A DNA stretch of 64,000 bases from Nitrospirota bacterium (GCA_035873375.1 JAYWMQ010000052.1:44331-108330), one strand, 5' to 3'. Shown: positions 16,972 to 32,269, counted from the first letter of the stretch. Notes: generated by a model not told the origin, from the sequence alone. Numbers and translations: made by a program.

Positions 16972-17048
16972 ATCAAGCACTCCTTCCTGGAATTTTTTAT
17001 TTGTTATTTTTCATCTTTCATTTTTCATTTATTAAAAAAGAGAACTCT

Positions 17049-17178
17049 ACCACAGAGACACAGGAGATAAAACAAGAAAACTTTGTAAAACAGTCTTTAA
17101 TCTCTGTGTCTCAGTGCCTCAGTGTTTTATATTCCCCTGACATAAAAAATCTTAGTTTTTACCACAGAGGCACAGAGA
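17049..17178. repeat. CACAGAG-type palindromic element plus a solo arm in the 356-bp cooC-acsE spacer
   Basis: accacagagacacaggagat (17049..17068) faces atctctgtgtctcagtg (17100..17124). A further solo arm accacagaggcacagaga lies at 17161..17178, nearly identical to 28752..28770. Confidence 0.75.
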
Positions 17179-17336
17179 AAAAACCCGGATCCAAAAACCA
17201 TGTTTTAAGCCTGTTCCTTAAAGTTACCCGAATACAGGAATAAAGCAAGGGTTGAAAAGGATAACATAAAATATAGCGTATGGTAAAGCATTGCACTATT
17301 TAAAATTATTATAATTTTATAGAGAATAAGGGAGGT

Positions 17337-18104
17337 TTAGGGGATATTGAGACCGTCAAGTATGGTGAAAACAGAGCGGAGCGCAGGGGAGTTATCAGGC
17401 AGCTCAATCAGAGGTCTCCCCTGAAGGTCATATTCAAATATTTTTCCATCCTGGGGAACAAGCCCTGCACAATGAAGGCCCAGCCCATCGGCAAGTTTCG
17501 TGAGGGTCTCACCCTCCTCACCGGAGACCCTGTTTATAATCAGGACACTCCTTTCGATATCAAGTTTCAGCTCATCCACAAGATCCCTGATCCTCCCGGC
17601 CGTCTGTATTCCCTTTACAGTCGGGTCACTCACTATCAGCAAAAGATCCACCTTGTGTGTGGTCCTCCTGCTGAGATGCTCCATACCCGCCTCATTGTCA
17701 ATCACCACATAGGGATAGCGCTCTGCAAGTATGTCCGTATATTTTCTGATAATATTATTGGCCGCGCAGTAACAGCCCGGCCCTTCGGGCCTGCCCATCA
17801 CCAGCAGATCAAAACCCTTTGCCTCTATCAGGGCCTGATTAATCTGATATTCAAAGAGCTCGTCCATACTCATGCCCCCCGGCCTTTCACTGCCGGAACG
17901 TATGGTCTCAAGTGAGGACTCCCTCAGTTGTCCCACAGAGGCATGAACCTTTACGCCAAGCGCTTCATTCAGGCATGCGTTACTGTCAGCATCAACTGCA
18001 AGTACAGGCCCCCGCCTCTTCTCAACAAGATACCTCACTGTCAGCCCAGCTATACTCGTCTTTCCTGTACCGCCTTTACCTGCAAGAGCAATCAAAAACG
18101 ACAT
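17337..18104 (-). CDS. cooC: CODH nickel-insertion accessory ATPase (CooC/AcsF family)
   Basis: 255 aa. Deviant Walker A at the N-terminus (IALAGKGGTGKTSIAG), a MinD/ParA-like fold and the CxC-type motif region GPGCYC. Confidence 0.92.
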   Translation of the reverse strand: MSFLIALAGKGGTGKTSIAGLTVRYLVEKRRGPVLAVDADSNACLNEALGVKVHASVGQLRESSLETIRSGSERPGGMSMDELFEYQINQALIEAKGFDLLVMGRPEGPGCYCAANNIIRKYTDILAERYPYVVIDNEAGMEHLSRRTTHKVDLLLIVSDPTVKGIQTAGRIRDLVDELKLDIERSVLIINRVSGEEGETLTKLADGLGLHCAGLVPQDGKIFEYDLQGRPLIELPDNSPALRSVFTILDGLNIP

Positions 18105-18133
18105 ACCATCTCTCCTCCCTGTATTTTTAAAGA

Positions 18134-21130
18134 TTAAAACACCACATCAAAAACCATCTCCTTCATACCAAAAAGAAACCGCTTCCGCTTCACCTTTATC
18201 TTTACTTTATCTCCGGGCCTCCTGTCAAGAAGCGCAATCTTTACGTCAGGGATATCCCCGACAATCTTATCATCAATTGCAATGATTATATCACCCTCTT
18301 TAAGCCCTGCCTTGTCGGCAACTCCACCCTTCATGACCTTCTCGATAACAACCCCTTTCTTCTGATCCTTGAGAAAGACCATCAGCCGTGCACTCTCCGG
18401 GGGCTCAATCCGCTTTGGAAAGAGGACAAAATCTGCAATTCCGCGGTCAAAACCCTCACCCCCGTAATTAAGAATAACCGTGGGGCGCTCATTGGTCAGC
18501 CGTTTTACCCTGTCCGGTATTCCCCATGAATGCTGGACATGCCCGTTTCCGGCAAGAACCACCATCTGTGTATCAGGATATTTCTTCAGTGTATCTGCAA
18601 TACTGTGAGCCATTGTCTCATCCCACAGGATCTGCGACTGAACGAAATTCTCAAAATTACTTTTATTGTCATGCTGGGAGAAAACATTCCTGAGGTATTC
18701 CCTGTACTGCTGATTCGTCATATCCATATCCTGGGGTATTTCGGCGTACTCATCCTCTGTAAGCGAGTCAATTCCATCCTTTGAGACCTTCTTGAGAATC
18801 TCCTTCCTGATATTCAGCGCTATTACCGGAATGCGGTTTGCACGTGCGTACTGGAGGATATCCCTGTACAGGTTGTAATCAAAAACCCATCTTTTAAAAT
18901 ACTCCGTCTTCCTGAGGAACTCTGCCTCGTTTATATCACCCTGGATGTACTGGTCAAGATACTTTTGAAAGGGCCGCTGGAACATCTCCATGCCGACAAC
19001 CAGTTTCCCGCTGTCACTGTACAGCCTCCTGATAATTTCATACTGTACTACGTGGTGCTCGTATGCAGTATGCATCTCCCCTACAAAGACCACCCTGCTG
19101 TCCTTAATCTTCCGTATCACAGCATCAAGCCCAATGGTATCCGCAGTCTCTACAGCATCAAGCCGGAGTGTCAGGTCCACAGAAATCCCTTTATCGGAGT
19201 CAGCGGTCTTTTTCAGAATGTTCCTGCCATTTTCAAAGACAAGGAGGGAATAATTTCCGTATCTGAATATCTTTCCAAATGCCCTGTCTGCCTCCTGCCG
19301 GTCTTTTGCATTAAAGACCACGGCAACCCTCTCTGAATTCAGTGGGTTTTTATAAACCTTTACAACAAATCCTCCCTCAGTGAGGGGTCTGTCTGCAAAA
19401 AGACGCCTGTAAATCCTGTTTTTGACCGACATTATCAGGATGGAATTTTCCTCTATCTCCTTATCTCTAACCTCTTTCTCTCCCCTTACAGTATAGCCCT
19501 GCTCTTTAAAAAAAGCGGCCGCATCCCTATAAACATCTTTTTCATCCTCAGGCACAATAACAACACTGCCCTTTCTCCCGGTAAAGGCAGATATCACCGG
19601 CGGCACTTCGCTCTCTGCAAGTCTTCTCATGGTGTCATAATTCTCATCCAGGAATATCCTGAGGGGCCTTGCTGAAAAGGCCCTCTCATATTGCAGGTCT
19701 GCCTTATCGACTCTGATAATAAACTCCTCCTCCCCTGCTGCTGTTACAACCCTTGCAGGAAGGTCAAAGACAAAGGGGTCATTATCCTGAACAATGTTGA
19801 GCCTCAACAGGTATTTGCCGTCTCTGAAGACAACCAGTCCATCCTTTACATCAAGTGAGGGCACACCTTTTTTGTCAATCCACTGTCTAAAAAACTCCTT
19901 TAATTGAAGCCCGCTTGAGGATGCAAGGGAATCCCTGATATCATCCCATGTGGCTTCCCTGTATTTACTGGATTCAATAAACTCCCTGAGTCCCCTGAAA
20001 AAGGCATCGTCTCCGAGTCTCTTTCTCAGCATATGAAAGACCATTGCCGACTTGCCATAGCCTATAGTCCTCGTTGAAAAACCCTCACGGCTGATAAAGT
20101 CCTTCAGGGCAATCTCATTATCAGCAGACACGTAATTCATGTAATCAAGCATGATCCTCTTCCTGTACTCCGCCCCTTCACCCTTGAGCTCCTTATACCA
20201 TTGGTCGGACAGATATGTTGTAAACCCCTCCGACCAGTTGCCTGATTTGTAATCAACATATACATAATTGCCGAACCACTGGTGGAGTATCTCATGACCA
20301 AGAGAGGTCCTGACGATAAAGGGCAGCCTTATAACCTTTGAGCCAAGCAGTGTATATGTGGGAAAGGAGTAGCCTGTCTGATACCTGTTCTCTACAATGG
20401 AGAAATTTTTATAGGGAAAAGCCCCAAGCATGGATTTATAGAGCTTTAAATATCTCTTTGTGTTTTCAATATAGGTGGCTGCAAGCCCCTCATCCTCTGA
20501 AAACAGATATGTCCTTATCAAAACCCCCTCAAACTGCTCCTCCTGTACCCGGTATTCTCCGGCAACAAGGGTTATCGTGGCAAGTGGATGGGGGAAATCA
20601 AAGTTGATGGTCTTTATATCATTGTCAACAGAAACAGTGGCAGCCTCGGATTCTGATATGGCATCAAAATCCTTTGGGACCTCCACGGTCAGCCTGTAAA
20701 TAAAGTCTCCCTTAAATTCAGGGTACCACTGTTGTAGCAGCATTATACCCGTGGTATCCACTACATTGCTGCCCGAAACACCGGGATTGACGGCGGACTC
20801 CTCCTCTGCCTTGGGTTTAAATAAAGCACTGTATTCAATCTCGACAACCCTCTCCCCTTCTCCTGCCTCAAGGGCCTTAAGTGCCTCTTCTCCAAACTCA
20901 TATTCCCTGCCGTTTATTCTGAATGACTTTATGTTGAGTCCATCCGTCCGGAGGTATGCCTTCCGTTTATCCGGCAAAATAACCTTCGCCCTCCCCTCAA
21001 CAGAGCTGCTCTCCGGCAAAACCCTGACCTTAAGCTCATACAGGGGGAGCTCAGAGGCAGCAATGTTATTGCAGGACGTAATTATGGCAATAAAGAATAA
21101 CGCCGTAACAAATCGCACATATGTCATCAT
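18134..21130 (-). CDS. lipoprotein fusion: M1-family zinc aminopeptidase + ChaN/Tiki-like domain + C-terminal PDZ
   Basis: M1 signatures GHEILHQWFGN (HExxH) and WSEGFTTY. ChaN-like block VFVGEMHTAYEHH...GMEMFQRPFQKYLDQY...RIPVIALN. PDZ block GVVIEKVMKGGVADKAGLKEGDIIIAID. The signal MMTYVRFVTALFFIAIITSC has a lipobox. The track start at 21151 is GTG with no SD. The ATG at 21130 follows AGGAG. Confidence 0.85.
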   Translation of the reverse strand: MMTYVRFVTALFFIAIITSCNNIAASELPLYELKVRVLPESSSVEGRAKVILPDKRKAYLRTDGLNIKSFRINGREYEFGEEALKALEAGEGERVVEIEYSALFKPKAEEESAVNPGVSGSNVVDTTGIMLLQQWYPEFKGDFIYRLTVEVPKDFDAISESEAATVSVDNDIKTINFDFPHPLATITLVAGEYRVQEEQFEGVLIRTYLFSEDEGLAATYIENTKRYLKLYKSMLGAFPYKNFSIVENRYQTGYSFPTYTLLGSKVIRLPFIVRTSLGHEILHQWFGNYVYVDYKSGNWSEGFTTYLSDQWYKELKGEGAEYRKRIMLDYMNYVSADNEIALKDFISREGFSTRTIGYGKSAMVFHMLRKRLGDDAFFRGLREFIESSKYREATWDDIRDSLASSSGLQLKEFFRQWIDKKGVPSLDVKDGLVVFRDGKYLLRLNIVQDNDPFVFDLPARVVTAAGEEEFIIRVDKADLQYERAFSARPLRIFLDENYDTMRRLAESEVPPVISAFTGRKGSVVIVPEDEKDVYRDAAAFFKEQGYTVRGEKEVRDKEIEENSILIMSVKNRIYRRLFADRPLTEGGFVVKVYKNPLNSERVAVVFNAKDRQEADRAFGKIFRYGNYSLLVFENGRNILKKTADSDKGISVDLTLRLDAVETADTIGLDAVIRKIKDSRVVFVGEMHTAYEHHVVQYEIIRRLYSDSGKLVVGMEMFQRPFQKYLDQYIQGDINEAEFLRKTEYFKRWVFDYNLYRDILQYARANRIPVIALNIRKEILKKVSKDGIDSLTEDEYAEIPQDMDMTNQQYREYLRNVFSQHDNKSNFENFVQSQILWDETMAHSIADTLKKYPDTQMVVLAGNGHVQHSWGIPDRVKRLTNERPTVILNYGGEGFDRGIADFVLFPKRIEPPESARLMVFLKDQKKGVVIEKVMKGGVADKAGLKEGDIIIAIDDKIVGDIPDVKIALLDRRPGDKVKIKVKRKRFLFGMKEMVFDVVF

Positions 21131-21183
21131 TATCAAAAATCTCCTGTACACTTGAAATAACTTGCCACAACTGTAAAGATTAT

Positions 21184-21278
21184 TCAGCCGCAGATTTTCG
21201 CAGATAAACGCAGATTATCAAGACTTTAGAGAAATTTTGCTTTACTATCTGCGTGAATCTGCTAAAATCTGCGGCTGA
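21184..21278. repeat. ~90-bp palindromic intergenic element, GCAGAT family, copy 1
   Basis: tcagccgcagattttcgcagataaacgcagat (21184..21215) faces atctgcgtgaatctgctaaaatctgcggctga (21247..21278). About 93% identical to the copy at 23128..23215. Confidence 0.85.
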
Positions 21279-21291
21279 AATCCGTTGACAC

Positions 21292-22308
21292 TCAGAACAG
21301 CCGGTTGGGAACATTTATCTTCAGGTGTTCATAAGCGCCGCGTGTGGCAAGCCTGCCCCTTGGTGTCCGTTCTATAAACCCCTCCTGAAGGAGAAAGGGT
21401 TCATAAACATCCTCAATCGTCTCCTTATCCTCCCTCACAGAGGCTGCAAGGGTGTCCACACCTACGGGGCCGCCGGCATATTTTTCAATAATTGTAAGCA
21501 GGAGCTTCCTGTCCATATCGTCAAGCCCCCTGTCATCCACATCCATGGCCTCAAGGGCGTACCGGGCTATCTCTATCCCGATCGTACCGTCACCCTTCAC
21601 CTGGGCAAAATCCCTCACCCTCCTCAGGAGCCTGTTTGCAATCCTCGGTGTACCTCTTGAACGGCGGGCAACCTCAAAGGCGGCATCTTCGGTTATATGG
21701 ACATCAAGGATGGTTGAGGAACGTTTGACCACCCTTATAAGCTCTTCAGGCCTGTAGTATTCGAGCCTCACAATCACACCAAAACGGTCCCTGAGGGGAA
21801 ATGTCAGCAGCCCTGTGCGGGTGGTGGCACCAACGAGTGTGAAGTGCGGCAGGTTTACCTTGAGTGAACGGGCATTTGGGCCCTGTCCAATAATAATATC
21901 AAGGTGAAAATCCTCCATGGCAGGATACAGGACCTCTTCGACGATCCTGGGCATCCGGTGTATCTCGTCAATAAAGAGGATATCCTGATCCGAGAGGTTT
22001 GTAAGTATTGCGGCAAGGTCTCCCTGCCTCTCGAGCACCGGACCTGATGTGGTCTTCAGGCTTACGCCAAGCTCATTGGAGATAATATGTGCAAGCGTGG
22101 TCTTTCCAAGCCCTGGCGGGCCGTAGAAGAGAACATGGTCAAGTGCCTCTCCACGGTGTCTTGCCGCCTGAATATAAACATGGAGGTTATCCTTTAACCG
22201 CTCCTGCCCTATAAACTCTTCAAAACTCCTGGGCCTCAGGGTTACATCCAGGAGCAGATCATCCTGAGATACCTCTGGCTCAACCCCACTTTCATCCGTC
22301 TCTTTCAG
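21292..22308 (-). CDS. ruvB: Holliday junction branch migration helicase RuvB (start extended beyond the ORF-track call)
   Basis: Track ORF 21292..22038 begins mid-protein ([10 protein letters not shown]...). The frame stays open upstream and encodes [18 protein letters not shown]...[26 protein letters not shown] (Walker A). There is no in-frame ATG, GTG or TTG before the stop at 22333..22335. A CTG at 22306..22308 lies 5 nt after GGGAGG (22314..22319). Confidence 0.85.
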
Positions 22309-22998: not shown

Positions 22999-23127
22999 CT
23001 CAGGGGTTGCCCTCCTTTTTTAAAAAAACCGGATATGTTTCATCGATAATTCAGGTGTATTATACAATAAAGAAAGGTTTTTACAGAAAGGACAGCGGGG
23101 GATTAAAAGAAATCAAGAGTAAATTTG

Positions 23128-23215
23128 GCCGCAGATTTTGCAGATAAACGCAGATTGTCAAGACTTTAGAAAAATTCTGCTTTAATATCTGCGTGAATCT
23201 GCGAAAATCTGCGGC
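23128..23215. repeat. ~90-bp palindromic intergenic element, GCAGAT family, copy 2
   Basis: gccgcagattttgcagataaacgcagattgtcaagactttagaaaaattctgctttaatatctgcgtgaatctgcgaaaatctgcggc. Same orientation as copy 1. Confidence 0.85.
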
Positions 23216-23223
23216 AGAGAGTC

Positions 23224-25833
23224 TTAATTCACGGTTGTAAAGCTTCTGACATAGCTTAGACTCGCTGCACCTTTGTCATCACTTGCAACGACCTGCCAGG
23301 AGTATGTGGTGTCCGGATTAAGTCCTTCAACCGTATAGCTCAAAATGGCTGTATCCGTCTCCCCGGAAACCGAGTTGTCCACATCGGTAACCGTACCCTT
23401 GCCGCATGAAACCAGCAACATTGCCGTTAATATTATAATCCCTGCCAACAGGACTATCTTCCTCCGCCTTCCATCACCTGCAACGACCATTCCGAAGAGC
23501 AGCAGTCCGGCTCCAGCTCCAAGCCCTGCATAAATTGTCCTGCCGGGACTGCCAGTAAGGGTTGACTCTTCCACTTTTGCGGCAATGCAATTCTCCGGAG
23601 TGCCTTCGTTGTCTTCACAGTATCTGATTTCATAGGTCACGGGGTCACCCTCCGGGTCTGTGACTCCCTCCCATTGAAACGTTACCGTTGTCTCCAGCCC
23701 TGTTTCACCGTCTTCCGGAGAGACAGGTGCCGGCCTGGCCGGTGTATGGTTACCCTCTTCAGGCAGGCATGAGCCCGTGACTTTCTCATACGCCTCTGCA
23801 TCCACCCTTTCAGGAACAGTCAGGTAAACAGTCCAGGGCCATGGTTCACCGGGCGATGTACCACACATAGCTACCACAACCTCACTCTCATCCGGGTCGT
23901 CAGACGGAATACGGACTACCTTGCCCCACGAGCCTGTATCAGGCGAGGGGTCGGTAAACAGGATTGTGAGTGTGCAGGTAGCTGATGGTGCAAGGGTCTG
24001 GTTTGAACAGTTGTCTGTTATACTGAATGGCCAGAACAGCCCCGGCTGGTCGGACACATAGGGTATCTGGCTTATGTTAAGGTCTGCATCGCCGAGATTG
24101 GTTACCGTTACAGTATGTGACGTGTTCGGAATATCACCAAACGGCACTTCAAGGTCATTATCCGTACCTGACGAATCAGTGACACTGATGTCAGGTTCAG
24201 GTACCGCTATAAAGGTTGCCGTCATTGTCGGGGCTGAGGCGCTGATAGAAGTCACCTTTACATAACTTGCAGTTCCGTTATACAGATCACTGTCCGGAAT
24301 GCTGCTGCCAGTAAATGATGTATTGTTCGTAGAGCCCGGATAAAGGTCACCGCTGTCTCCCCTGTTATTATTCTTCTCAAGGTCCAAATTGCCGTCAGCC
24401 TGCTCCAGTGAAACCCAGTAGTGGGTTGCCGAGCAGTCAGAGGGGGGATAACACTCGTTGGCATTACTTGTCCGGCTTTCCTCTATATGCCATATGGCAA
24501 GGCCGGCTGCGGGCAGTCCCTCATCAAAAGTACCTGTAACACGCTGCCTGTTTTCTACCAGGAAATATTCCCCGCCGGTTGACGGGCTGCCGGAGAGGAG
24601 CTGATACACATCCGCCGCTGTGGCTGCCGCATCAATGGACTCATCAGTCAGTCTGTATGTAACCTGAGTTGGAGTAACCCAGCCAAGGCGGTATTTGCTC
24701 CATGCCGACATATGGGCAGGGGTATCCCCCTGTCTTGTCACATAGTTCCACGTCCCTCCACTCATCAAACCCCAGTTACCTATCCCCTCCGAGCTCCCGT
24801 CAGTGTCGTAGAGGTCAGGCAGGCCCAGGGCATGGCCGTACTCATGGGCAAAAACACCTATTGTCGACTGGATTGGCGGAGGCCCTGTACGGTAAAGCTC
24901 GGGCATGATAATGTAATCGTTCACTTTATAGCCTCCGGGGCAGGAAGCATCTGAATCGCCCGTGGTATAGATACCATAGTTGCTGTATCCGGAGTTCCGG
25001 GCACTGGAGAGATTCCAGCGATGGGACCATATATCTGTCGAGGCCTCACCGACCTCCTCGCCGGTACCCTGATGGACTATTCCCACTACATCTACATAGC
25101 AGTCCCCGTCGGAATCATATGCAGAAAAATCAACCGTGGCATCTGCTGCCGCAACAGCCTCATAAACGAGGTCACCGGGCCACGTATCTTGTCCCTGGGC
25201 ATTATTGGTACCGTAATAATCATGGTTATTTGCTGTTGTGTACCATCCCACAACACCAGCCGGTCCGGGAGATACGCTGAAGGCACCGTATGAGACCTCT
25301 TCATAATAGTCCTTCATACTCTTGTTTCCCGTACCAAAAAGGAGGGTATCAAAATCCGGGGTATTGTATGTCGTTGTTGTATTATTAAAGTTTATGAGGA
25401 TGACAGGGATATTCGCAGCCCCTGACGGAGGCACAACCTTCTGAGGTAAATCAGGAGGTTGTATTGCCTTTCGCTGAAGGACTTCCACCAGAACGTCTCC
25501 AGCCGGCCTGATGTGTTTTTGTAAAACCTCTGTGGGCCGGGTCTTGCCAACTACCCATGAAGAGGCTGTAAGCCTTCCGCTGCCGTCTGTTACTGCATAT
25601 GTCCAGTTCTGCAACGACTCATTAAAGGCAATGGAATAACCGTCTTCAGTCTCCCATCCATGCAACCTTTCATCACCCCAAAGTCGGGCAGTAAACGCGC
25701 TCCCATCAGCCTGTATGAGGGTACGCACAACCGGTGCCGCTACAACTGCTTCAGCCTCTTCCACCCCCAACAAACCGGTAATAAAACAGACCACAACTGC
25801 ACAAAAAATAACTCCGGTTATTCCTGTCTTCAT
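23224..25833 (-). CDS. secreted M6 (immune inhibitor A-like) zinc metalloprotease with the shared C-terminal split-FN3/membrane-hairpin module (paralog A)
   Basis: 869 aa with an N-terminal signal peptide. Zinc site is HEYGHALGLPDLYD. One choice-of-anchor-D/ASH-like domain (FGDIPNTSHTVTVTNLGDADL...SITDNCSN...CTLTILF...IPSDDPDESEVVVAMCGT). The C-terminus is shared with the three downstream paralogs. Confidence 0.88.
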   Translation of the reverse strand: MKTGITGVIFCAVVVCFITGLLGVEEAEAVVAAPVVRTLIQADGSAFTARLWGDERLHGWETEDGYSIAFNESLQNWTYAVTDGSGRLTASSWVVGKTRPTEVLQKHIRPAGDVLVEVLQRKAIQPPDLPQKVVPPSGAANIPVILINFNNTTTTYNTPDFDTLLFGTGNKSMKDYYEEVSYGAFSVSPGPAGVVGWYTTANNHDYYGTNNAQGQDTWPGDLVYEAVAAADATVDFSAYDSDGDCYVDVVGIVHQGTGEEVGEASTDIWSHRWNLSSARNSGYSNYGIYTTGDSDASCPGGYKVNDYIIMPELYRTGPPPIQSTIGVFAHEYGHALGLPDLYDTDGSSEGIGNWGLMSGGTWNYVTRQGDTPAHMSAWSKYRLGWVTPTQVTYRLTDESIDAAATAADVYQLLSGSPSTGGEYFLVENRQRVTGTFDEGLPAAGLAIWHIEESRTSNANECYPPSDCSATHYWVSLEQADGNLDLEKNNNRGDSGDLYPGSTNNTSFTGSSIPDSDLYNGTASYVKVTSISASAPTMTATFIAVPEPDISVTDSSGTDNDLEVPFGDIPNTSHTVTVTNLGDADLNISQIPYVSDQPGLFWPFSITDNCSNQTLAPSATCTLTILFTDPSPDTGSWGKVVRIPSDDPDESEVVVAMCGTSPGEPWPWTVYLTVPERVDAEAYEKVTGSCLPEEGNHTPARPAPVSPEDGETGLETTVTFQWEGVTDPEGDPVTYEIRYCEDNEGTPENCIAAKVEESTLTGSPGRTIYAGLGAGAGLLLFGMVVAGDGRRRKIVLLAGIIILTAMLLVSCGKGTVTDVDNSVSGETDTAILSYTVEGLNPDTTYSWQVVASDDKGAASLSYVRSFTTVN
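23401..23532 (-). other. membrane-hairpin insertion in paralog A (TM1-RRRK-TM2 ending in a lipobox-like LVSCG)
   Basis: Encodes YAGLGAGAGLLLFGMVVAGDGRRRKIVLLAGIIILTAMLLVSCG (aa 768-811). Confidence 0.8.
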
Positions 25834-25854
25834 CTACCCCCCTTCAATCCTAAT

Positions 25855-25916
25855 AATTAAAAGTGGACAGGCCACTCTCTTCCCTGATTTTAAAAAAGGG
25901 AAAAAGCAGCCTGTCC
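25855..25916 (-). terminator. possible weak terminator hairpin between paralogs B and A
   Basis: ggacaggc (25865..25872) pairs with gcctgtcc (25909..25916), with imperfect inner pairing. On the minus strand it is followed by acttttaattatt. Weak, so readthrough is plausible. Confidence 0.35.
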
Positions 25917-25933
25917 TTATACACTACATATCC

Positions 25934-28711
25934 CTATCTTCGGTTACCGGTTGTAAAGCTCCATACTTCACTTGAAGCCTCACCACCCCGGCCATCACTT
26001 GCAATGACCTTCCAGGTGTATGATTCACCGGGGACGAGCGTAGCGGGATAGGTCTTAATACCTGGAACAGATGTATCAGTTGTGCTTTTACCGCATGAGA
26101 CGAGGAACATGGCTGTTATTGCCATCAGACCGATCAACAGGGCCAGCTTCCTGCGCCTTGCACTGCCTGCAAGCATCATCCCGAAGAGCAACAGTCCAGC
26201 TACGGAACCAAGTCCGGCATAAAGGGTACTGCTGCTTCCCTTTACAACATCACCTTCTACGGGCACGGCTTTGCAGGTGCTGCTGTCAAGTTCGGTCCCT
26301 TCAGGAGCATAGCATATCTGATAGGACACAGTGTCTCCATCTGCATCAGTGGACTCTTTCCAGACAAAAGTTACATTTGTCGGCACATTTGCGTCTCCGT
26401 CAGATGGGTAGTAGAGTTCAGGTGCATCAGGGGCAGTATTATCAGCAATTGCAGCAGGCACCGCGCAATCACTCAGGAGGCTCAGGAGGTCGGAGTCCGA
26501 CAAGTCAGAAGTATCGGTTGCAGCACTGTATGTCCAGCGTGGCGCCGTACCTCCGCCAGTCCCGCACATGGCTACTGCAACCTGAGGAACACCTGTGTCA
26601 CTGGAATTTATGCGGAGTACCCTGCCGAAAGACCCTGCGGTAGCTGGTGAGAAATCAACATCGATTGTACAGTTTGCTGATGCACCAAGAGTTGATGAGC
26701 AGTTGTCTGTTATGCTGAATGGCAGGAAAGCGTCTGCACCATATGTTGCAAGGGATGTTGAAATACCGGTAAGGTCTGTAGTACCGTTATTGGTTACTGT
26801 TATGGTCTGGGTTGTTGCTGAACCACCCACCGGAACATCACCAAAACCAATCTCAAGATCTGTATTCCCTGTACCATAGGTTACCATGATCTTCTCTGCA
26901 ACACCCAATGACCTGTCACCAGGGCCGGCTGCATATGCATGGAGATTCCACATTGTAAACTCCGTAGGATTAGCAGCCGGACAGTCATATGGAGTAACAC
27001 TACCCCAGCCGCCCTGTGCCCTTACGTTCCATGTGTGGGAGCCGGCAGCAGGTGTGTTGGTAAATGTATATTCCGTCCAGAGGGTACCTTCCACGGTATC
27101 AACATTGCTTGTAGCTGCGGGGGTTGTTGTGAGATCATCAACATACAGACTGACATCACTCACACAGGGATGGCCCCTGCCGTCAGCCCTGGTAACCTCG
27201 AGTATCCCAACCTTGAACGGCACGGCTCCGTTTGCGTATTCATCAGACGGGGTTACAGCATATATCTGAGGTCCGTGGAATTCGGGATTGGTGGCAAGAC
27301 CGGCAATTGTATACCACTCCGGCATGCCCCCATCAGCATAAGTGTCAACACTGTCAATGGAGTAAACGTTTCTGAATCCCAGTTTCTGCATGTATGCACC
27401 TGCCCAGTAGCCGCGATAGCCGCTGGCGCTGATGAGGTATATCCTTGTATTGAAATTAATGACCCCTGCCTGTTTCAGGTATCCCAGGATGGATTCAAAC
27501 TCAAGCGTGTCCTCCGGGAATGCGCCTGCATAGCTGCTGATCCAGAAGGGCACATTTGGGGGCAGAACCGTTACACCGGTAGCAGTGTCGGTCCACAGAG
27601 GGGAGCGGGCGTTCGAAGATGTACTGCCGCAGTCGTAAGTAAAAGGTGCCTGTCCTGTCACAGCGCATCCATTATGCTCTTCCCAGGTGCGAACGTCAAT
27701 TATTATACCGGTACGTGCAGAGGCAGAAGCTTCAGCCTCTATCGCTGATATATCAGACACTCCAAGGGCATGGTTGTTAAGCCCCCTTCCGGCATTATTG
27801 GCTGCAAGCGCCCTCCAGGTATAGGTTCCGGCGGGAATGTCGAATGGAGCGGTAGTGGAAGCGGCATCAAATGTATAGTCGGTCCAGAGGGCACCGGAGG
27901 TATCGTCCGGACTGAAGGCAACCTCATTCCCTCTGTATCCTGCACTGTCGAATATCTGAAGCGAGACCCTGGTTACCGGTGGAGGGTTAAAGTAACCGCT
28001 TGGGGTAGGCTCCAGAATGCTGACGGTAAAGGTCGTGCTGCCGTCAAATGTTGCAAAAACCTGTGGTGGCACAGTGGTAAAACTGAAAAACTCCCCCATG
28101 CCCATATATTTAGGCAATGTGCCGGTGTTCCACTCGGACATGCCTCCCTCGGCAGCGCCGGTACCGTCACCATCAATATTGTACAGATTGGCAAAGGTGC
28201 CGCTCCCTGTTTTAGTGCTGGTAAATGTCCTGCCGTCCATCCATGTAGCCATATAACGGCTTCTCACTCCGGTACGGCAGAGGAAGTAAAGCCTTGTGTT
28301 AAAGTCAATTACTCCCCTCTCAAGCAGACCCTCTATAATATTCGTCACCTCTGTAGAATCATCCGGGGCCAATGTGGGGAATGTGGTATTTTCGTTGACC
28401 CACCAGGGGATGTTTATCGGCAGATATGTTTTACCGTTTAGCCTCCACTTCGGAGTGCCGTTGTATGCAGTGTTAGTATCCGTTGCCCCTGCTATTGCAC
28501 AACCGGTAGGACCCCAGGGGGGGCATTTACCGTTATTCTCATCAACTGAGCGCACATCTATTATGACCGCATCCGTACCGGTATTTTTCACTTCATTGTA
28601 AGCGGCAGTTGCCGATACTTCAGTAAAAACGGCCCATGCCGACTGCGCTGCAAACAGAAAAAACCCTGCGAGCGCCAGAAAAAATACTGAGTATAGTCTT
28701 CCTCTCCTCAT
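25934..28711 (-). CDS. secreted tandem-rhodanese surface protein with split-FN3/membrane-hairpin C-terminus (paralog B)
   Basis: 925 aa with an AxA signal (MRRGRLYSVFFLALAGFFLFAAQSAWA). Rhodanese 1 (aa ~33-200) has the loop FLCRTGVRS. Rhodanese 2 (aa ~320-472) has Cys replaced (LISASGYRG). Each rhodanese is followed by an Ig-like domain. Then one choice-of-anchor-D-like domain and the shared C-terminal module. SD is AGGAGG. Confidence 0.88.
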   Translation of the reverse strand: MRRGRLYSVFFLALAGFFLFAAQSAWAVFTEVSATAAYNEVKNTGTDAVIIDVRSVDENNGKCPPWGPTGCAIAGATDTNTAYNGTPKWRLNGKTYLPINIPWWVNENTTFPTLAPDDSTEVTNIIEGLLERGVIDFNTRLYFLCRTGVRSRYMATWMDGRTFTSTKTGSGTFANLYNIDGDGTGAAEGGMSEWNTGTLPKYMGMGEFFSFTTVPPQVFATFDGSTTFTVSILEPTPSGYFNPPPVTRVSLQIFDSAGYRGNEVAFSPDDTSGALWTDYTFDAASTTAPFDIPAGTYTWRALAANNAGRGLNNHALGVSDISAIEAEASASARTGIIIDVRTWEEHNGCAVTGQAPFTYDCGSTSSNARSPLWTDTATGVTVLPPNVPFWISSYAGAFPEDTLEFESILGYLKQAGVINFNTRIYLISASGYRGYWAGAYMQKLGFRNVYSIDSVDTYADGGMPEWYTIAGLATNPEFHGPQIYAVTPSDEYANGAVPFKVGILEVTRADGRGHPCVSDVSLYVDDLTTTPAATSNVDTVEGTLWTEYTFTNTPAAGSHTWNVRAQGGWGSVTPYDCPAANPTEFTMWNLHAYAAGPGDRSLGVAEKIMVTYGTGNTDLEIGFGDVPVGGSATTQTITVTNNGTTDLTGISTSLATYGADAFLPFSITDNCSSTLGASANCTIDVDFSPATAGSFGRVLRINSSDTGVPQVAVAMCGTGGGTAPRWTYSAATDTSDLSDSDLLSLLSDCAVPAAIADNTAPDAPELYYPSDGDANVPTNVTFVWKESTDADGDTVSYQICYAPEGTELDSSTCKAVPVEGDVVKGSSSTLYAGLGSVAGLLLFGMMLAGSARRRKLALLIGLMAITAMFLVSCGKSTTDTSVPGIKTYPATLVPGESYTWKVIASDGRGGEASSEVWSFTTGNRR
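26090..26221 (-). other. membrane-hairpin insertion in paralog B
   Basis: Encodes YAGLGSVAGLLLFGMMLAGSARRRKLALLIGLMAITAMFLVSCG (aa 831-874). Confidence 0.8.
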
Positions 28712-28751
28712 AACAACCTCCTTGACCTCAATGTAGTACCGTCAAAACTTA

Positions 28752-28836
28752 ACCACAGAGGACACAGAGATTATTTTAAAGAAAGAGCTTAAGACCTTAA
28801 AAAAATTCTTATAATCTTCAAGTGTTTCTCTGTGGT
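28752..28836. repeat. CACAGAG-type palindromic element upstream of paralog B
   Basis: accacagaggacacagaga (28752..28770) faces ttctctgtggt (28826..28836). The centre, cttaagaccttaaaaaaattctt, resembles the centre of the GCAGAT elements (caagactttagaaaaattct). Confidence 0.7.
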
Positions 28837-28918
28837 GAAATTCTTTCTTCTCTCTATTTTATGGATATCTTATAGATATTTAATTTAATAACTACCAAAA
28901 ATATAATCTGAGGGAATT

Positions 28919-28951
28919 AAAAAGCCCGGGCCACCTGCGGGTGGCCCGGGC
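28919..28951 (-). terminator. rho-independent terminator of paralog C
   Basis: 11-bp GC-rich stem: gcccgggccac (28924..28934) pairs with gtggcccgggc (28941..28951). On the minus strand it is followed by TTTTT (complement of 28919..28923). It sits 37 nt after the stop at 28988. Confidence 0.85.
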
Positions 28952-28987
28952 CGGAGTTACTTCTCAAATTCTGCTAATACACACCTC

Positions 28988-31750
28988 TTAACGCCTTCCT
29001 CTTCTTTTCTTACCGCTTTCGGTCTTGAAGCTCCACTCATCACTTAGAGTCTGGTCCTGTCCGTCACTTGCAGTGACCTGCCAGTAATAAGTAGTGTTAG
29101 CATCAAGTCCGCTGATAACGGTACCCGTTGTATTTTCGGGTGTAACGTCATCACCGCAAGATACGAGGAACATGGCTGTCAATATCATCATACCTATCAA
29201 CAGTACCATCTTTCTCCGCCTTGTACTGCCTGCAAGAACAAATCCGAACAGGAGCAGTCCTGCTCCAGCACCAAGCCCTGCAAACATCGGGCTGTCGGTA
29301 CCTTTGGCGGATGCCGTAGTGTCATCCACAGACACGGTAACACAGCCATCTGTGAGGTTCTCGTCCTTACAATATGTAACCTCATAGGTCACAGGATCAT
29401 TGTCAGGATCAGTGGCTTTCTTCCACACAAGAGGCAGATCGCTGGTTGGTACATCAGTAGCTCCGTTTTCAGGGTAAAGAAGTTCAGGCTTAGTAGGCGG
29501 CTGATTAGCTCCTACCTCTACACCTTCTCCACTTACACTGACTGTTACAGAGGCCTCATCAGGGTCATCTGATGTGATGACAAGGCTGTCAGTGAAGGTC
29601 CCCACTGCTGATGGGGCAAAGCTTACTGTAATAGCACAGCTTTCTGATGGTGCAAGTGTGCCTGTGCATCCATCATCCGTGATGCTGAACGGATCGCTGA
29701 GTGAAGATACTGAAGCAATGGTAAGGTCTGCTGTACCGTCATTTGTAACGGTTACAACCTGACTGTCGGAATCTCCAACAGTTACACTGTCGAAGTCCAC
29801 AGATGTCGTGGATACCGTAATATCAGGCTGAGCAGCAACACCTGTACCGCTCAGAGCCACATCCACAACCGCTGTGTCAGGGTCGTCCGACGGTATGGAA
29901 AGCGTTCCTGTATTTACACCCTCTGCTGATGGTGTAAATATCACATCTACCGTACAGTTGTCTCCAACTGCCACGGCACTGTTTGAACAGAGATCATTTG
30001 CAGTGCTGTAGTCGCCTGTTACAGCAAGTGCTCCTACATTGAGGGTTGCACTGCCTGCATTTGTAACTGTAACGGTCTGAGCTGACGTATTTCCGATTAT
30101 CACACTGCCAAAGTCCACCGTGGTCGGAGATACTGAAATATCAGGCTCAGGAGTCGCTATGCCTGTGCCGCTTAATGCCACATTCACAACCGCTGAGTCA
30201 GGATCGTCCGACTCAATGAAAAGGGTGCCGGTCAAATCACCCAATCCTGCTGGTTGAAAGACTACATCCGCCGTACAGCTCACGCCCGGTGCCAGTATCC
30301 CGTCCAAAGGACAGTTACTGCCTGTCGCTGTGAAATCACCGATTATTGCAACGTTTGTAACCGTAAGATCAGCAGTGCCTGTATTTGCAATCGTAACGGT
30401 CTGCGCCGCTGATGTATCTCCGACAACAACATTGCCGAAAGCAAGGCTTGCCGGTGTAACGGAAATATTTGGCTCAGGAGTAGTGGCAGCAACACCTGTA
30501 CCGCTTAATGCCACATCGAGAACCGCTGTGTCAGGGTCATCCGACGGGATGGAGAGGGTGCCGGTCAGAAAACCTTCCGTTGCAGGTTCAAAAACCACTG
30601 ACACCGTACAGTTACTTCCCGCCGTCACGGTAGCGCTGGAACAGCTATCAGCGGTAATAGTAAAGTCACCGGTTTTAGTTACCGCATAGATATTAAGGTC
30701 TGCAGTACCTGTATTTGAGACCGTAAAGGTCTGTGCTGATGATGTGCCTCCAACCGTCACAGAGCCAAAGTCTTTTGCACCTGGAGAGACGGAAATATTA
30801 GGCTCGGAAACAATCGTTGAAACAGTCAATGTCCTGTCACCAGGACCGGCATCAAGTGCATAGGCACTCCAGCTCACGTCTGTGCTGGCAGTCCAGGAAG
30901 CAGACGTTGCTTTTACATTCCATGTATGGGAACCGTTCGACAGTGTCTGGGTGAAACTGTACACCGTCCAGAGGGTACCGGCTACAGTATCGGTAGTGTC
31001 AGAGGCAACCTGAGCACCGGCTACATACAGATCAACCGAATTTATAGCTCTAAAACCTTGCCATCCTCGTCCTAATTTGACATTGCCCCATGTGGGCTCC
31101 AGAATTCCAACGGAAAATGTGACTGTATCAGTACTGGTTTCTGTAAAACCGTCGACAGGTGTTATAGAGTATATCTGTGGCGGCTTCCAGGTCTCGTTCT
31201 TTGGCAGGCCCTGTTTAGTCCACTCCAACATACCTCCGTCTGTACCACCAAGGCCGTCACTGTCAAGGGTATAGACATTAGTAAAGCCCATATTGTTCTG
31301 CACCCATACTGCGCCATAGTAGCTGCGATAACCGCTCCTGCAGATGAAATACAAAGGGGTGCTCTTTGTAATATACCCGGAATCCAGGAGAGCCTGAAAA
31401 GCATTCCTGTACTCCGTAGTGTCCTCCGGGTTTTTGTCACTGGCAGTACTGCTGATCCAGAAGGGTATATTGGGCGGCAAAACCGTTACGCCGGTTGCAT
31501 CATCAACCCACTGTGGAGAGCCGTTGTTACCCGCCTCCGGATTGGGACATGTCTCCCCAGCCCACGGGGGCTGACATTTGTTGTGCTCTTCCACAGAACG
31601 TACATCAATTATCACTCCATTGCGTGCTTTTGCGTTGTTGTAAGCATCAAGTGGTGAAATACTGCCAACAGCTGCCCATGCCGGCTGCACCGTAAAGAGA
31701 AACAACGATGCAAGCGCCAGCAATACTGAGTATATTTTTACCCTACTCAT
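28988..31750 (-). CDS. secreted rhodanese + 4x choice-of-anchor-D repeat surface protein with split-FN3/membrane-hairpin C-terminus (paralog C)
   Basis: The track start at 31774 is TTG. The ATG at 31750 follows AAGGGAGGT by 7 nt and gives the signal MSRVKIYSVLLALASLFLFTVQPAWA, matching the paralogs. One rhodanese domain (loop FICRSGYRS) plus an Ig-like domain. Four ~105-aa tandem repeats (PNISVSP..FG.V.VG.TS.Q..T..N.G.A.L...C....V.F.P...G..TG.L.I.SDDPD.....V.LSGTG). Shared C-terminal module. Confidence 0.88.
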   Translation of the reverse strand: MSRVKIYSVLLALASLFLFTVQPAWAAVGSISPLDAYNNAKARNGVIIDVRSVEEHNKCQPPWAGETCPNPEAGNNGSPQWVDDATGVTVLPPNIPFWISSTASDKNPEDTTEYRNAFQALLDSGYITKSTPLYFICRSGYRSYYGAVWVQNNMGFTNVYTLDSDGLGGTDGGMLEWTKQGLPKNETWKPPQIYSITPVDGFTETSTDTVTFSVGILEPTWGNVKLGRGWQGFRAINSVDLYVAGAQVASDTTDTVAGTLWTVYSFTQTLSNGSHTWNVKATSASWTASTDVSWSAYALDAGPGDRTLTVSTIVSEPNISVSPGAKDFGSVTVGGTSSAQTFTVSNTGTADLNIYAVTKTGDFTITADSCSSATVTAGSNCTVSVVFEPATEGFLTGTLSIPSDDPDTAVLDVALSGTGVAATTPEPNISVTPASLAFGNVVVGDTSAAQTVTIANTGTADLTVTNVAIIGDFTATGSNCPLDGILAPGVSCTADVVFQPAGLGDLTGTLFIESDDPDSAVVNVALSGTGIATPEPDISVSPTTVDFGSVIIGNTSAQTVTVTNAGSATLNVGALAVTGDYSTANDLCSNSAVAVGDNCTVDVIFTPSAEGVNTGTLSIPSDDPDTAVVDVALSGTGVAAQPDITVSTTSVDFDSVTVGDSDSQVVTVTNDGTADLTIASVSSLSDPFSITDDGCTGTLAPSESCAITVSFAPSAVGTFTDSLVITSDDPDEASVTVSVSGEGVEVGANQPPTKPELLYPENGATDVPTSDLPLVWKKATDPDNDPVTYEVTYCKDENLTDGCVTVSVDDTTASAKGTDSPMFAGLGAGAGLLLFGFVLAGSTRRRKMVLLIGMMILTAMFLVSCGDDVTPENTTGTVISGLDANTTYYWQVTASDGQDQTLSDEWSFKTESGKKRRGRR
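29153..29284 (-). other. membrane-hairpin insertion in paralog C
   Basis: Encodes FAGLGAGAGLLLFGFVLAGSTRRRKMVLLIGMMILTAMFLVSCG. Confidence 0.8.
29510..30805 (-). repeat. four tandem ~315-bp coding repeats (choice-of-anchor-D / ASH-like Ig domains) inside paralog C
   Basis: aa 324-755 in track numbering. The repeat boundaries PEPNISV / PEPDISV / QPDITV and the ...SDDPD...LSGTG ends are visible in the translation. Confidence 0.8.
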
Positions 31751-32081
31751 ATAAGCTACCTCCCTTAAATTCAATGTACTGAAGATGTACGGATTTCAGC
31801 TCTTCTAAATTATAGTACTCTCGTTAACCTTTCTGTCCCGAAATCATCGGGATTACTCTTTAAGAATTTCCGGGTTTTTCTATGGCCTTATCACCTCCCT
31901 TTATTTGGGGTGTATCCAGTGTTTCCCTTGCGTCATACGCAGACTATCCAAGTGTTATCAGAGGTAATATTTAATGTGAATCTGTTGAGTGGTTTCCTGA
32001 AATTCAGCGCTGTGAATCTCATTCTGTCTACTTGATTGTAAAAAAATCAAGCAACTTGCAATCTTTGCAATGAAAAACCGG

Positions 32082-32124
32082 AGAAAAATAAGGCCCTGAC
32101 CATACTGTGAGTATGGTCAGGGCC
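32082..32124 (-). terminator. rho-independent terminator of paralog D
   Basis: 15-bp perfect stem: ggccctgaccatact (32092..32106) pairs with agtatggtcagggcc (32110..32124), loop gtg. On the minus strand it is followed by ttatttttctc. Confidence 0.8.
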
Positions 32125-32269
32125 CAAAGCTTATATCAGGATAAGCGAGTCAGCCACGGTAAGACATGACCACGTTTCATCAGGTCTCATAACAGATATC
32201 AAAAACTGTCTCATGACTGTCATCAACGTCTTATCCTCCCTTACTTTTTTCAAATCTTCCCGGCAGAGA

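Follow-up and report, generated by a model that had tools for sequence, protein, structure and literature searches.

We analyzed a 64,000-nucleotide (nt) stretch of DNA from a Nitrospirota bacterium (GCA_035873375.1 JAYWMQ010000052.1:44331-108330), here called the window, with respect to one gene on its minus strand that encodes an M1 peptidase/ChaN/PDZ fusion protein (18134..21130; 998 amino acids plus a stop codon by the open reading frame [ORF] list and by translation). In minus-strand order, the locus comprises an M6 peptidase gene, ruvA, ruvB, a 161-nt gap, the fusion gene, a 29-nt gap, cooC, acsE, acsD, acsC, acsB, and a gene for carbon monoxide dehydrogenase (CODH). The full minus-strand ORF (18134..21151) opens with GTG. 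The likely start codon is the ATG at 21130 (MMTYVRF...), which lies 10 nt behind an AGGAG motif and yields the 998-residue product; the closest homologues share this start position. Translation reads through the 998 codons without interruption. Plus-strand coding at 18134-21130 was rejected because the translation consisted of stops only, which places the gene on the minus strand. The GC content of the gene is unremarkable (about 46%, compared with 45 to 52% in its neighbors) and thus gives no sign of recent transfer.

The original prediction had described a four-part protein (a lipobox signal, an M1 core, a ChaN/Tiki block, and a PDZ domain), and this anatomy was borne out. All of the motifs it quoted are present, and the domain search it proposed, for Peptidase_M1, PF04187, and PDZ, matched all three above their Pfam gathering scores. 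Peptidase_M1 matched residues 277-417 (E = 2.6e-19); Cofac_haem_bdg/ChaN (PF04187) matched residues 672-875 over profile positions 2-213 of 213 (E = 1.2e-69; 235 bits against a cutoff of 27.7); and PDZ_2, PDZ_6, and PDZ scored 46.4, 40.2, and 37.5 bits, respectively, at residues 918-983. No NCBIfam model covers the whole protein; the matches obtained, all sub-threshold, were aminopeptidase N and the HtrA and RseP PDZ domains. An AlphaFold2 model of the full-length protein, built on 112 homologues, reached a mean predicted local distance difference test (pLDDT) score of 90.7 and a predicted template modeling (pTM) score of 0.84.

The N-terminal part of this model matches the M1 enzymes IRAP, ERAP1, F3, and PepN over about 540 to 560 columns (Foldseek against the PDB; E = 5e-27 to 1e-23), and residues 50-430 align in sequence with residues 24-423 of tricorn-interacting factor F3 (phmmer against the PDB). 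Three M1 domains can be delimited here. The N-terminal beta domain I spans residues 30-210 (20501..21043, minus strand), as judged from the AlphaFold secondary structure, the phmmer alignment to F3 from residue 50 onward, and Foldseek. The thermolysin-like catalytic domain II follows at residues 214-420 (19871..20491, minus strand) and is defined by Pfam, the F3 alignment, and conservation. A beta-sandwich at residues 425-494 (19649..19858, minus strand) appears from the model to be the equivalent of M1 domain III, because the Foldseek alignment is longer than the catalytic domain and because this segment is modeled as all-beta. The helical M1 domain IV is missing: in the model, residue 494 is followed by a flavodoxin-like domain, ChaN, and PDZ, and no ERAP1_C-type Pfam match was detected.

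Between domain III and ChaN, at residues 495-660 (19151..19648, minus strand), the AlphaFold model places a conserved helix, D-x-x-Y-D-x-M-R, and a flavodoxin-like alpha/beta domain of about residues 520-660. Conservation here and below refers to 112 full-length homologues that are 41 to 90% identical to the protein; Y498 and R502 of the helix are invariant among them, and D499 is at least 90% conserved. A Pfam search of residues 495-668 gave no significant match. Modeled alone, the alpha/beta domain had an AlphaFold pLDDT of 79 and weakly resembled BcsB and the N-terminal domains of GH84 and GH115 enzymes (Foldseek; best E = 1e-3, template modeling score of about 0.45 to 0.5). The matched part of BcsB is presumably one of its flavodoxin-like domains. 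We treat the domain as a putative spacer and derive no function from these weak matches. The original prediction had placed a linker of about 250 residues before the ChaN block; the ChaN assignment stands, and the linker gives way to a folded region made up of the domain III beta-sandwich, the YDxMR helix, and the flavodoxin-like domain.

The ChaN/Tiki-fold domain occupies residues 668-905 (18416..19129, minus strand), as assigned from PF04187, invariant residues, and alignment to Campylobacter jejuni ChaN (2G5G; E = 1.5e-5 with the single sequence and 1.2e-11 with a profile). In PDB searches with this domain, by single sequence and by profile, 2G5G was the only structure reached; no Ere, Bcr, or RRSP structures were found. 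The chain ends in a PDZ domain at residues 918-997 (18140..18379, minus strand), identified by the PDZ_2, PDZ_6, and PDZ models. In NCBIfam and the PDB, it is best matched by the PDZ domains of HtrA, DegQ, and RseP.

Residues expected at the M1 active site are strongly conserved: five of them (E247, H279, E280, E301, and Y358) do not vary among the homologues, and two more, N248 and H283, are kept in at least 90%. In the F3 alignment, SIVEN falls on GAMEN, H279-E-I-L-H283 on HEIAH, E301 on the Glu of NES, and Y358 (IGYGK) on the Tyr of SYGK. The Glu ligand E301 comes 17 residues after HEILH, where the canonical spacing is 18, and the difference appears as a one-residue gap in the alignment. 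Within the ChaN domain, E685-x-H687, E715, and H864 are invariant, as are N773, H820, D837, E838, R874, and R877. The first four of these can be mapped by motif and spacing, through the published structural similarity of ChaN to Bcr135, onto the 2His/2Glu tetrad of related hydrolases. Catalysis by RRSP requires such a set (E3900, H3902, E3930, and H4030; PMC6254334), and the equivalent residues of erythromycin esterase (E47, H50, E78, and H289) are likewise needed for catalysis (PMC7979712). The spacing of 28 between H687 and E715 equals that in EreC (H50/E78) and in RRSP (H3902/E3930), and the ExH motif is identical to that of RRSP.

The N terminus has the features of an export signal. A putative signal peptide at residues 1-20 (21071..21130, minus strand), recognized from the sequence and a PROSITE-like pattern, begins with a charged start and a hydrophobic stretch and ends in a lipobox-like I17-T18-S19-C20. 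This end matches a PS51257-like pattern, for which we required [LVI][ASTVI][GAS]C at the close of the signal peptide. A possible signal peptidase I site, IAAS/E, lies six residues past Cys20. Most homologues appeared to lack a lipobox on first inspection of their N termini, and the pattern was matched in 7 of the 112, including the two closest (P0002 and P0003); in 61 of the 112, a small-x-small motif directly precedes a conserved PxYxL mature start. Judged from these N termini, export is a trait of the family, whereas lipid anchoring is not family-wide and would at most characterize this lineage. The protein may be lipid anchored via Cys20 in the source organism, and most relatives are probably soluble periplasmic proteins. 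The earlier description of a lipoprotein is thus consistent with the lipobox pattern of this one sequence and does not extend to the family.

The family proved to be large, unstudied, and found mainly in the Nitrospirota and Thermodesulfovibrionia. A word-indexed search returned 1,328 matches; the best 120 are all about 860 to 1,030 amino acids long, carry Pfam matches to M1, ChaN, and PDZ, and are collinear with the protein over 80 to 100% of its length. One of the matches (P0001), from a Nitrospirota metagenome-assembled genome (MAG) in NCBI, is identical to it and is named "ChaN family lipoprotein." An exhaustive search of cluster representatives at 50% identity gave 1,959 at E ≤ 1e-30. The best 150 of these clusters have E values of 1e-119 or better at identities down to 30%; most are 940 to 1,100 amino acids long and match end to end, and the remaining ones are shorter, some evidently cut at contig ends. 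In GTDB contigs, with one genome per species, we confirmed at least 590 relatives. The best 80 of these belong mainly to Nitrospirota/Thermodesulfovibrionales, with a few from Thermodesulfobacteriota, Spirochaetota, Schekmanbacteria, and "Deltaproteobacteria." Automatic annotation names most relatives "ChaN family lipoprotein" or "PDZ domain-containing protein."

The original prediction had regarded the combination of domains as undescribed and had proposed a search for the same architecture in other genomes. The architecture was found widely, in all of the best 120 homologues and among the at least 590 GTDB relatives, and so the combination is not rare. Part of it is also on record: the pairing of ChaN (EreA-ChaN-like) with PDZ was catalogued as an uncharacterized family by Muley et al. 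in 2019 (PMC6411480), in a survey in which 88% of the classified bacterial PDZ proteins join PDZ with a protease and in which the triple fusion of M1, ChaN, and PDZ goes unmentioned. Our literature search found the triple fusion in no paper and found no functional study.

Some relatives consist of the M1 part without ChaN and PDZ. P0230, of 662 amino acids, ends just past the flavodoxin-like domain; it occurs on three contigs, and the next gene is a convergent metG. M1-only relatives of 640 to 690 amino acids (P0230 at L083/L084:5001-6989, P0237, P0260, and P0263) have no adjacent ChaN-PDZ gene. At the level of predicted proteins, such sequences show that the M1 module would be self-sufficient and that the modules can exist apart. 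Full-length homologues (40 to 42% identity) were also seen at three loci (L022, L051, and L055) in MAGs labeled "Candidatus Methanoperedens" or "uncultured archaeon." These archaeal labels reflect either binning contamination or transfer into archaea.

Immediately downstream of the fusion gene, a cooC-like CbiA-family ATPase gene (17337..18104, minus strand; assigned by Pfam) heads the acsE-acsD-acsC-acsB-CODH block, which extends to 9328. The intervening junction (18105..18133, minus strand) measures 29 nt, as the original prediction had stated along with the common strand; it contains GGGAGGAG as a ribosome-binding site and no hairpin. No terminator was predicted in the junction, and within the final 2 kb of the gene a consensus scan detected no sigma-70-like promoter. 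The promoter scan gave 12 matches, with 7.4 ± 2.5 expected by chance, and was not informative. A short junction to cooC (23 to 37 nt) is kept at the two most closely related loci, L001 and L002. Because of the 29-nt gap, the lack of a predicted terminator, and the persistence of the junction in these two relatives, cotranscription of the fusion gene with cooC is plausible in the source lineage.

This arrangement is confined to close relatives. Among 80 species-level loci, cooC-acs lies downstream only in L001 and L002, whose fusion proteins are 72% and 70% identical to that of the window. Where at least 1 kb of downstream sequence was available, cooC was the next gene in 2 of 67 loci and the next gene was convergent in 36 of 67; in homologues with identities of 59% and lower, the adjacency is lost. 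In a complete 2.3-Mb genome, topA and a gene with an Smr domain flank a homologue of 51% identity. On the other side, ruvAB precedes the gene in L001, L002, L012, and L030, a link slightly older than that to cooC. When neighbors within 6 kb were clustered across 81 loci, no family occurred in more than 16 of the 81, and no conserved partner emerged; read by eye, the sequences of recurrent neighbors resemble those of generic genes (ABC ATPase, histidine kinase, HflX, ThiC, and KdtA). Because the adjacency occurs in 2 of 67 loci, both in close relatives, and no neighbor recurs, the position next to cooC-acs is best explained, from these comparisons, as a lineage-specific juxtaposition with no conserved functional tie to acetyl-CoA synthase (ACS). 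The earlier proposal of cotranscription with a Ni/Fe-demanding pathway therefore holds as far as read-through into cooC is plausible, with neither terminator nor promoter predicted between the genes, and is not supported as to a functional tie.

At one more distant locus (L013; 43% identity in the fusion protein and 70 to 83% in the acs proteins), the acs block (L013:1-3760) lies about 4 kb upstream of the gene (L013:8001-11018), on the opposite strand. The genes in between resemble, by eye, a ThyX-type thymidylate synthase and a Kef-type potassium transporter, and cooC heads the acs block with an upstream region of its own. This arrangement may be what is left of an older regional neighborhood in the Thermodesulfovibrionia. 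Within the acs block of the window, a 356-nt gap separates cooC from acsE (16981-17336); no convincing ORF was seen in it, and Rfam gave no match. In the relative L081, a gene of 106 codons is called at the same place, and its translation is not clean. An internal promoter or a regulatory RNA serving acsE could lie in the gap.

Upstream, a 97-nt palindromic element that forms a strong hairpin (21183..21279, no strand assigned) lies between ruvB and the fusion gene, and a second copy is present at 23126-23217, so that the two copies, which differ at few positions, flank ruvAB. Its arms, each 40 nt long and complementary at 85%, enclose a loop of 17 nt, and GCAGAT occurs three times per arm at 10-nt spacing; the RNA fold predicted for the element has an energy of −58.7 kcal/mol (z = −6.1). 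The related loci L001 and L002 do not have the element, and because of this absence it is probably a recent insertion resembling repetitive extragenic palindromes or miniature inverted-repeat transposable elements, or else an operator-like array. The sole Rfam match in the region, a sub-threshold match of the hairpin to plant MIR173, was rejected as spurious.

The adjoining ruvB (21292-22306, minus strand) has no in-frame ATG, GTG, or TTG before about residue 90, and the ORF finder gives a product of 248 amino acids. The conserved N terminus, including the Walker A motif GPPGLGKT, is nevertheless present in frame, and a CTG near 22306, 5 nt past GGGAGG, would give a product of about 337 amino acids. 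The position of GGGAGG and the conserved in-frame N terminus suggest that ruvB starts at this CTG. Upstream of ruvA, the region 23224-35041 (minus strand) encodes the M6 peptidase, which is immune inhibitor A-like and carries fn3 and immunoglobulin (Ig)-like domains. Three or more proteins of about 925 amino acids are also encoded there, one of which (25934-28711) has HYDIN/ASH-type Ig-like domains. Identity between the window and the close relatives is 87 to 95% for the acs and ruv proteins, 70 to 72% for the fusion protein, and 63 to 65% for the M6 peptidase; the last of these ranges was recorded in relatives whose acs proteins are about 90 to 95% identical. We infer that the faster divergence of the fusion protein and the M6 peptidase would fit exported proteins.

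The protein can be compared with several characterized systems. With the M1 aminopeptidases (PepN, F3, and ERAP1/IRAP; PF01433), it shares the fold of domains I to III, and its residues align with theirs at the HExxH...E zinc site, at the catalytic Tyr, and at the Glu and Asn of GxMEN. It differs from them in lacking domain IV, in its ligand spacing of 17 instead of 18, in reading SIVEN, in its predicted export, and in its three extra C-terminal domains; its identity to solved M1 enzymes in structural alignments is 12 to 17%. The M1 peptidase of Deinococcus radiodurans is cytoplasmic. This two-domain enzyme (6A8Z/6IFF) works without a helical C-terminal domain and aligns with residues 140-427 of the fusion protein (E = 6e-10); at 474 amino acids, it is, by length and name, apparently the M1 part alone.

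C. jejuni ChaN (Cj0177) aligns over the whole of the ChaN domain and has the ExH, E, and H positions in common with it. ChaN itself is a stand-alone lipoprotein of about 270 amino acids encoded beside an iron-uptake system, and a heme-binding dimer has been reported, whereas in the fusion protein it comes fourth among five domains within a peptidase and no iron-uptake context is conserved. In C. jejuni ChaN, heme reportedly has a Tyr ligand, with a His and a Lys binding the propionates. The hydrolases of the Tiki superfamily (Tiki1/2, EreA-D, Bcr135/136, and MARTX RRSP) show a 2His/2Glu arrangement like that of the fusion protein, with the 28-residue spacing matching EreC and RRSP; there is no direct sequence match to them, and the link runs through the structural similarity published for ChaN. 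The envelope PDZ-proteases (HtrA/DegP/DegQ, Ctp/Prc, and RseP) are also exported and have PDZ domains, here of the HtrA/RseP type, fused to hydrolase domains, although their catalytic domains are S1, S41, or M50 and those of the fusion protein are M1 and Tiki-fold. In architecture, then, the protein is an undescribed variation on the M1 peptidases and PDZ-proteases and does not amount to a system of a new kind.

We propose that it is an exported envelope hydrolase of two modules that would process or degrade peptides or proteins in the periplasm, a reading that the sequence and the structural model make somewhat better than an even bet. The N-terminal module (residues 30-494) would be an M1 zinc metallopeptidase of domains I to III, with zinc-site and Tyr residues in place, followed by the flavodoxin-like spacer. 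The C-terminal module would contribute a ChaN/Tiki-fold domain with a 2His/2Glu tetrad instead of the helical domain IV, and then the HtrA/RseP-type PDZ domain. The PDZ domain, of a kind by which HtrA, Ctp, and RseP recruit the tails of their substrates, would hold exposed C termini or hydrophobic tails, the M1 site would cut from or near their N termini, and the ChaN domain could act either as a second hydrolytic site or as a cap over the M1 cavity. In M1 enzymes, the helical domain IV normally closes the substrate cavity; its presence is typical of the family, although some members lack it.

Several points weigh against this proposal. GxMEN is degenerate in this family (SIVEN, with Gly and Met replaced), although its Glu is invariant and its Asn at least 90% conserved. 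The N-terminal Glu-bearing motif of domain I was not recognizable in the alignment to F3. Given these two observations, the enzyme may act as an exopeptidase or as an endopeptidase. C. jejuni ChaN keeps the same four tetrad positions and, as the sole characterized PF04187 protein, is reported to be a heme-binding lipoprotein and not an enzyme; because a heme-binding protein shares the tetrad, its conservation is compatible with catalysis and does not prove it. The export route, moreover, was assessed by eye and by regular expression.

A peptidase with the M1 site as its only catalytic center, in which the ChaN fold replaces domain IV as a noncatalytic cap or substrate-binding domain and PDZ regulates access, would account for the missing helical domain and for the position of ChaN after it in the chain. 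The pTM of 0.84, which suggests rigid packing of the domains, and the existence of M1-only relatives agree with such a protein. ChaN has no reported enzymatic activity, and other Tiki-fold proteins, such as PMT, are noncatalytic (PMC6254334). PMT, however, lacks the 2His/2Glu motif, whereas the tetrad here is invariant in the 112 homologues, together with N773, H820, D837, E838, R874, and R877, and such a pattern of invariant polar residues is seen more typically in active sites than in caps. We therefore regard a single active site as doubtful, though the strongest of the alternatives. A further possibility is a two-headed periplasmic enzyme whose Tiki-fold hydrolase and M1 peptidase act in sequence on substrates held by PDZ; this we consider unlikely.

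A different role, acquisition of metals or cofactors, had been suggested in the original prediction: the ChaN domain would bind heme, iron, or a cofactor at the envelope, and the gene would be the functional first gene of cooC-acs, serving its Ni/Fe enzymes. Membership in PF04187 is indeed strong, and the analogy draws on a single precedent, C. jejuni ChaN, which binds heme and whose gene lies beside an iron-uptake system. The position of the gene 29 nt upstream of cooC on the same strand, with no terminator predicted, the retention of this adjacency in L001 and L002, and the acs cluster about 4 kb away in L013 also speak for it. Yet the adjacency is restricted to 2 of the 67 loci, both in close relatives, and is gone at 59% identity or less, and the acs block of L013 is on the opposite strand with two unrelated genes between. 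Among the recurrent neighbors of the family, as far as these were read by eye, there is no TonB receptor, ABC importer, or other uptake gene, so the conserved context offers no support for such a role. CODH/ACS is, moreover, a cytoplasmic, heme-free enzyme, and a pure binding protein would need neither the hydrolase tetrad nor the M1 site, both of which are invariant. A role in metal acquisition is on this evidence quite improbable. For the other role that the original prediction had raised, in processing proteins of the neighboring surface array, we saw no indication, although no test aimed at it was made. The chance that the fusion is an artifact of annotation (merged adjacent genes, a pseudogene, or a chimeric assembly) is negligible. 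Shorter relatives do exist, some clearly cut at contig ends, but all 998 codons form one unbroken frame, NCBI contains an identical full-length protein, the best 120 homologues are collinear across independent assemblies, and the full-length model is confident throughout.

The proposal of an exported envelope hydrolase bears on how PF04187 proteins are read. From one crystal structure, such proteins are annotated across databases as "haem-binding uptake" or "iron-regulated." Here the domain is fused to a peptidase and a PDZ domain, its tetrad is invariant, and no iron-uptake context accompanies it, which argues for a hydrolytic or proteolytic role in at least this branch. The gene is not to be read as a member of the Wood-Ljungdahl gene set and is uninformative about the Wood-Ljungdahl genes that adjoin it. 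In the Thermodesulfovibrionia, where the family is concentrated, the envelope has hardly been studied by experiment. The family would supply a natural example of an M1 core that, lacking domain IV, works with a different partner domain. If the two-headed enzyme were real, it would provide the first enzymatic role for a "haem-binding" PF04187 domain and show an M1 active site closed in a new way, by a second catalytic domain that replaces the helical domain IV.

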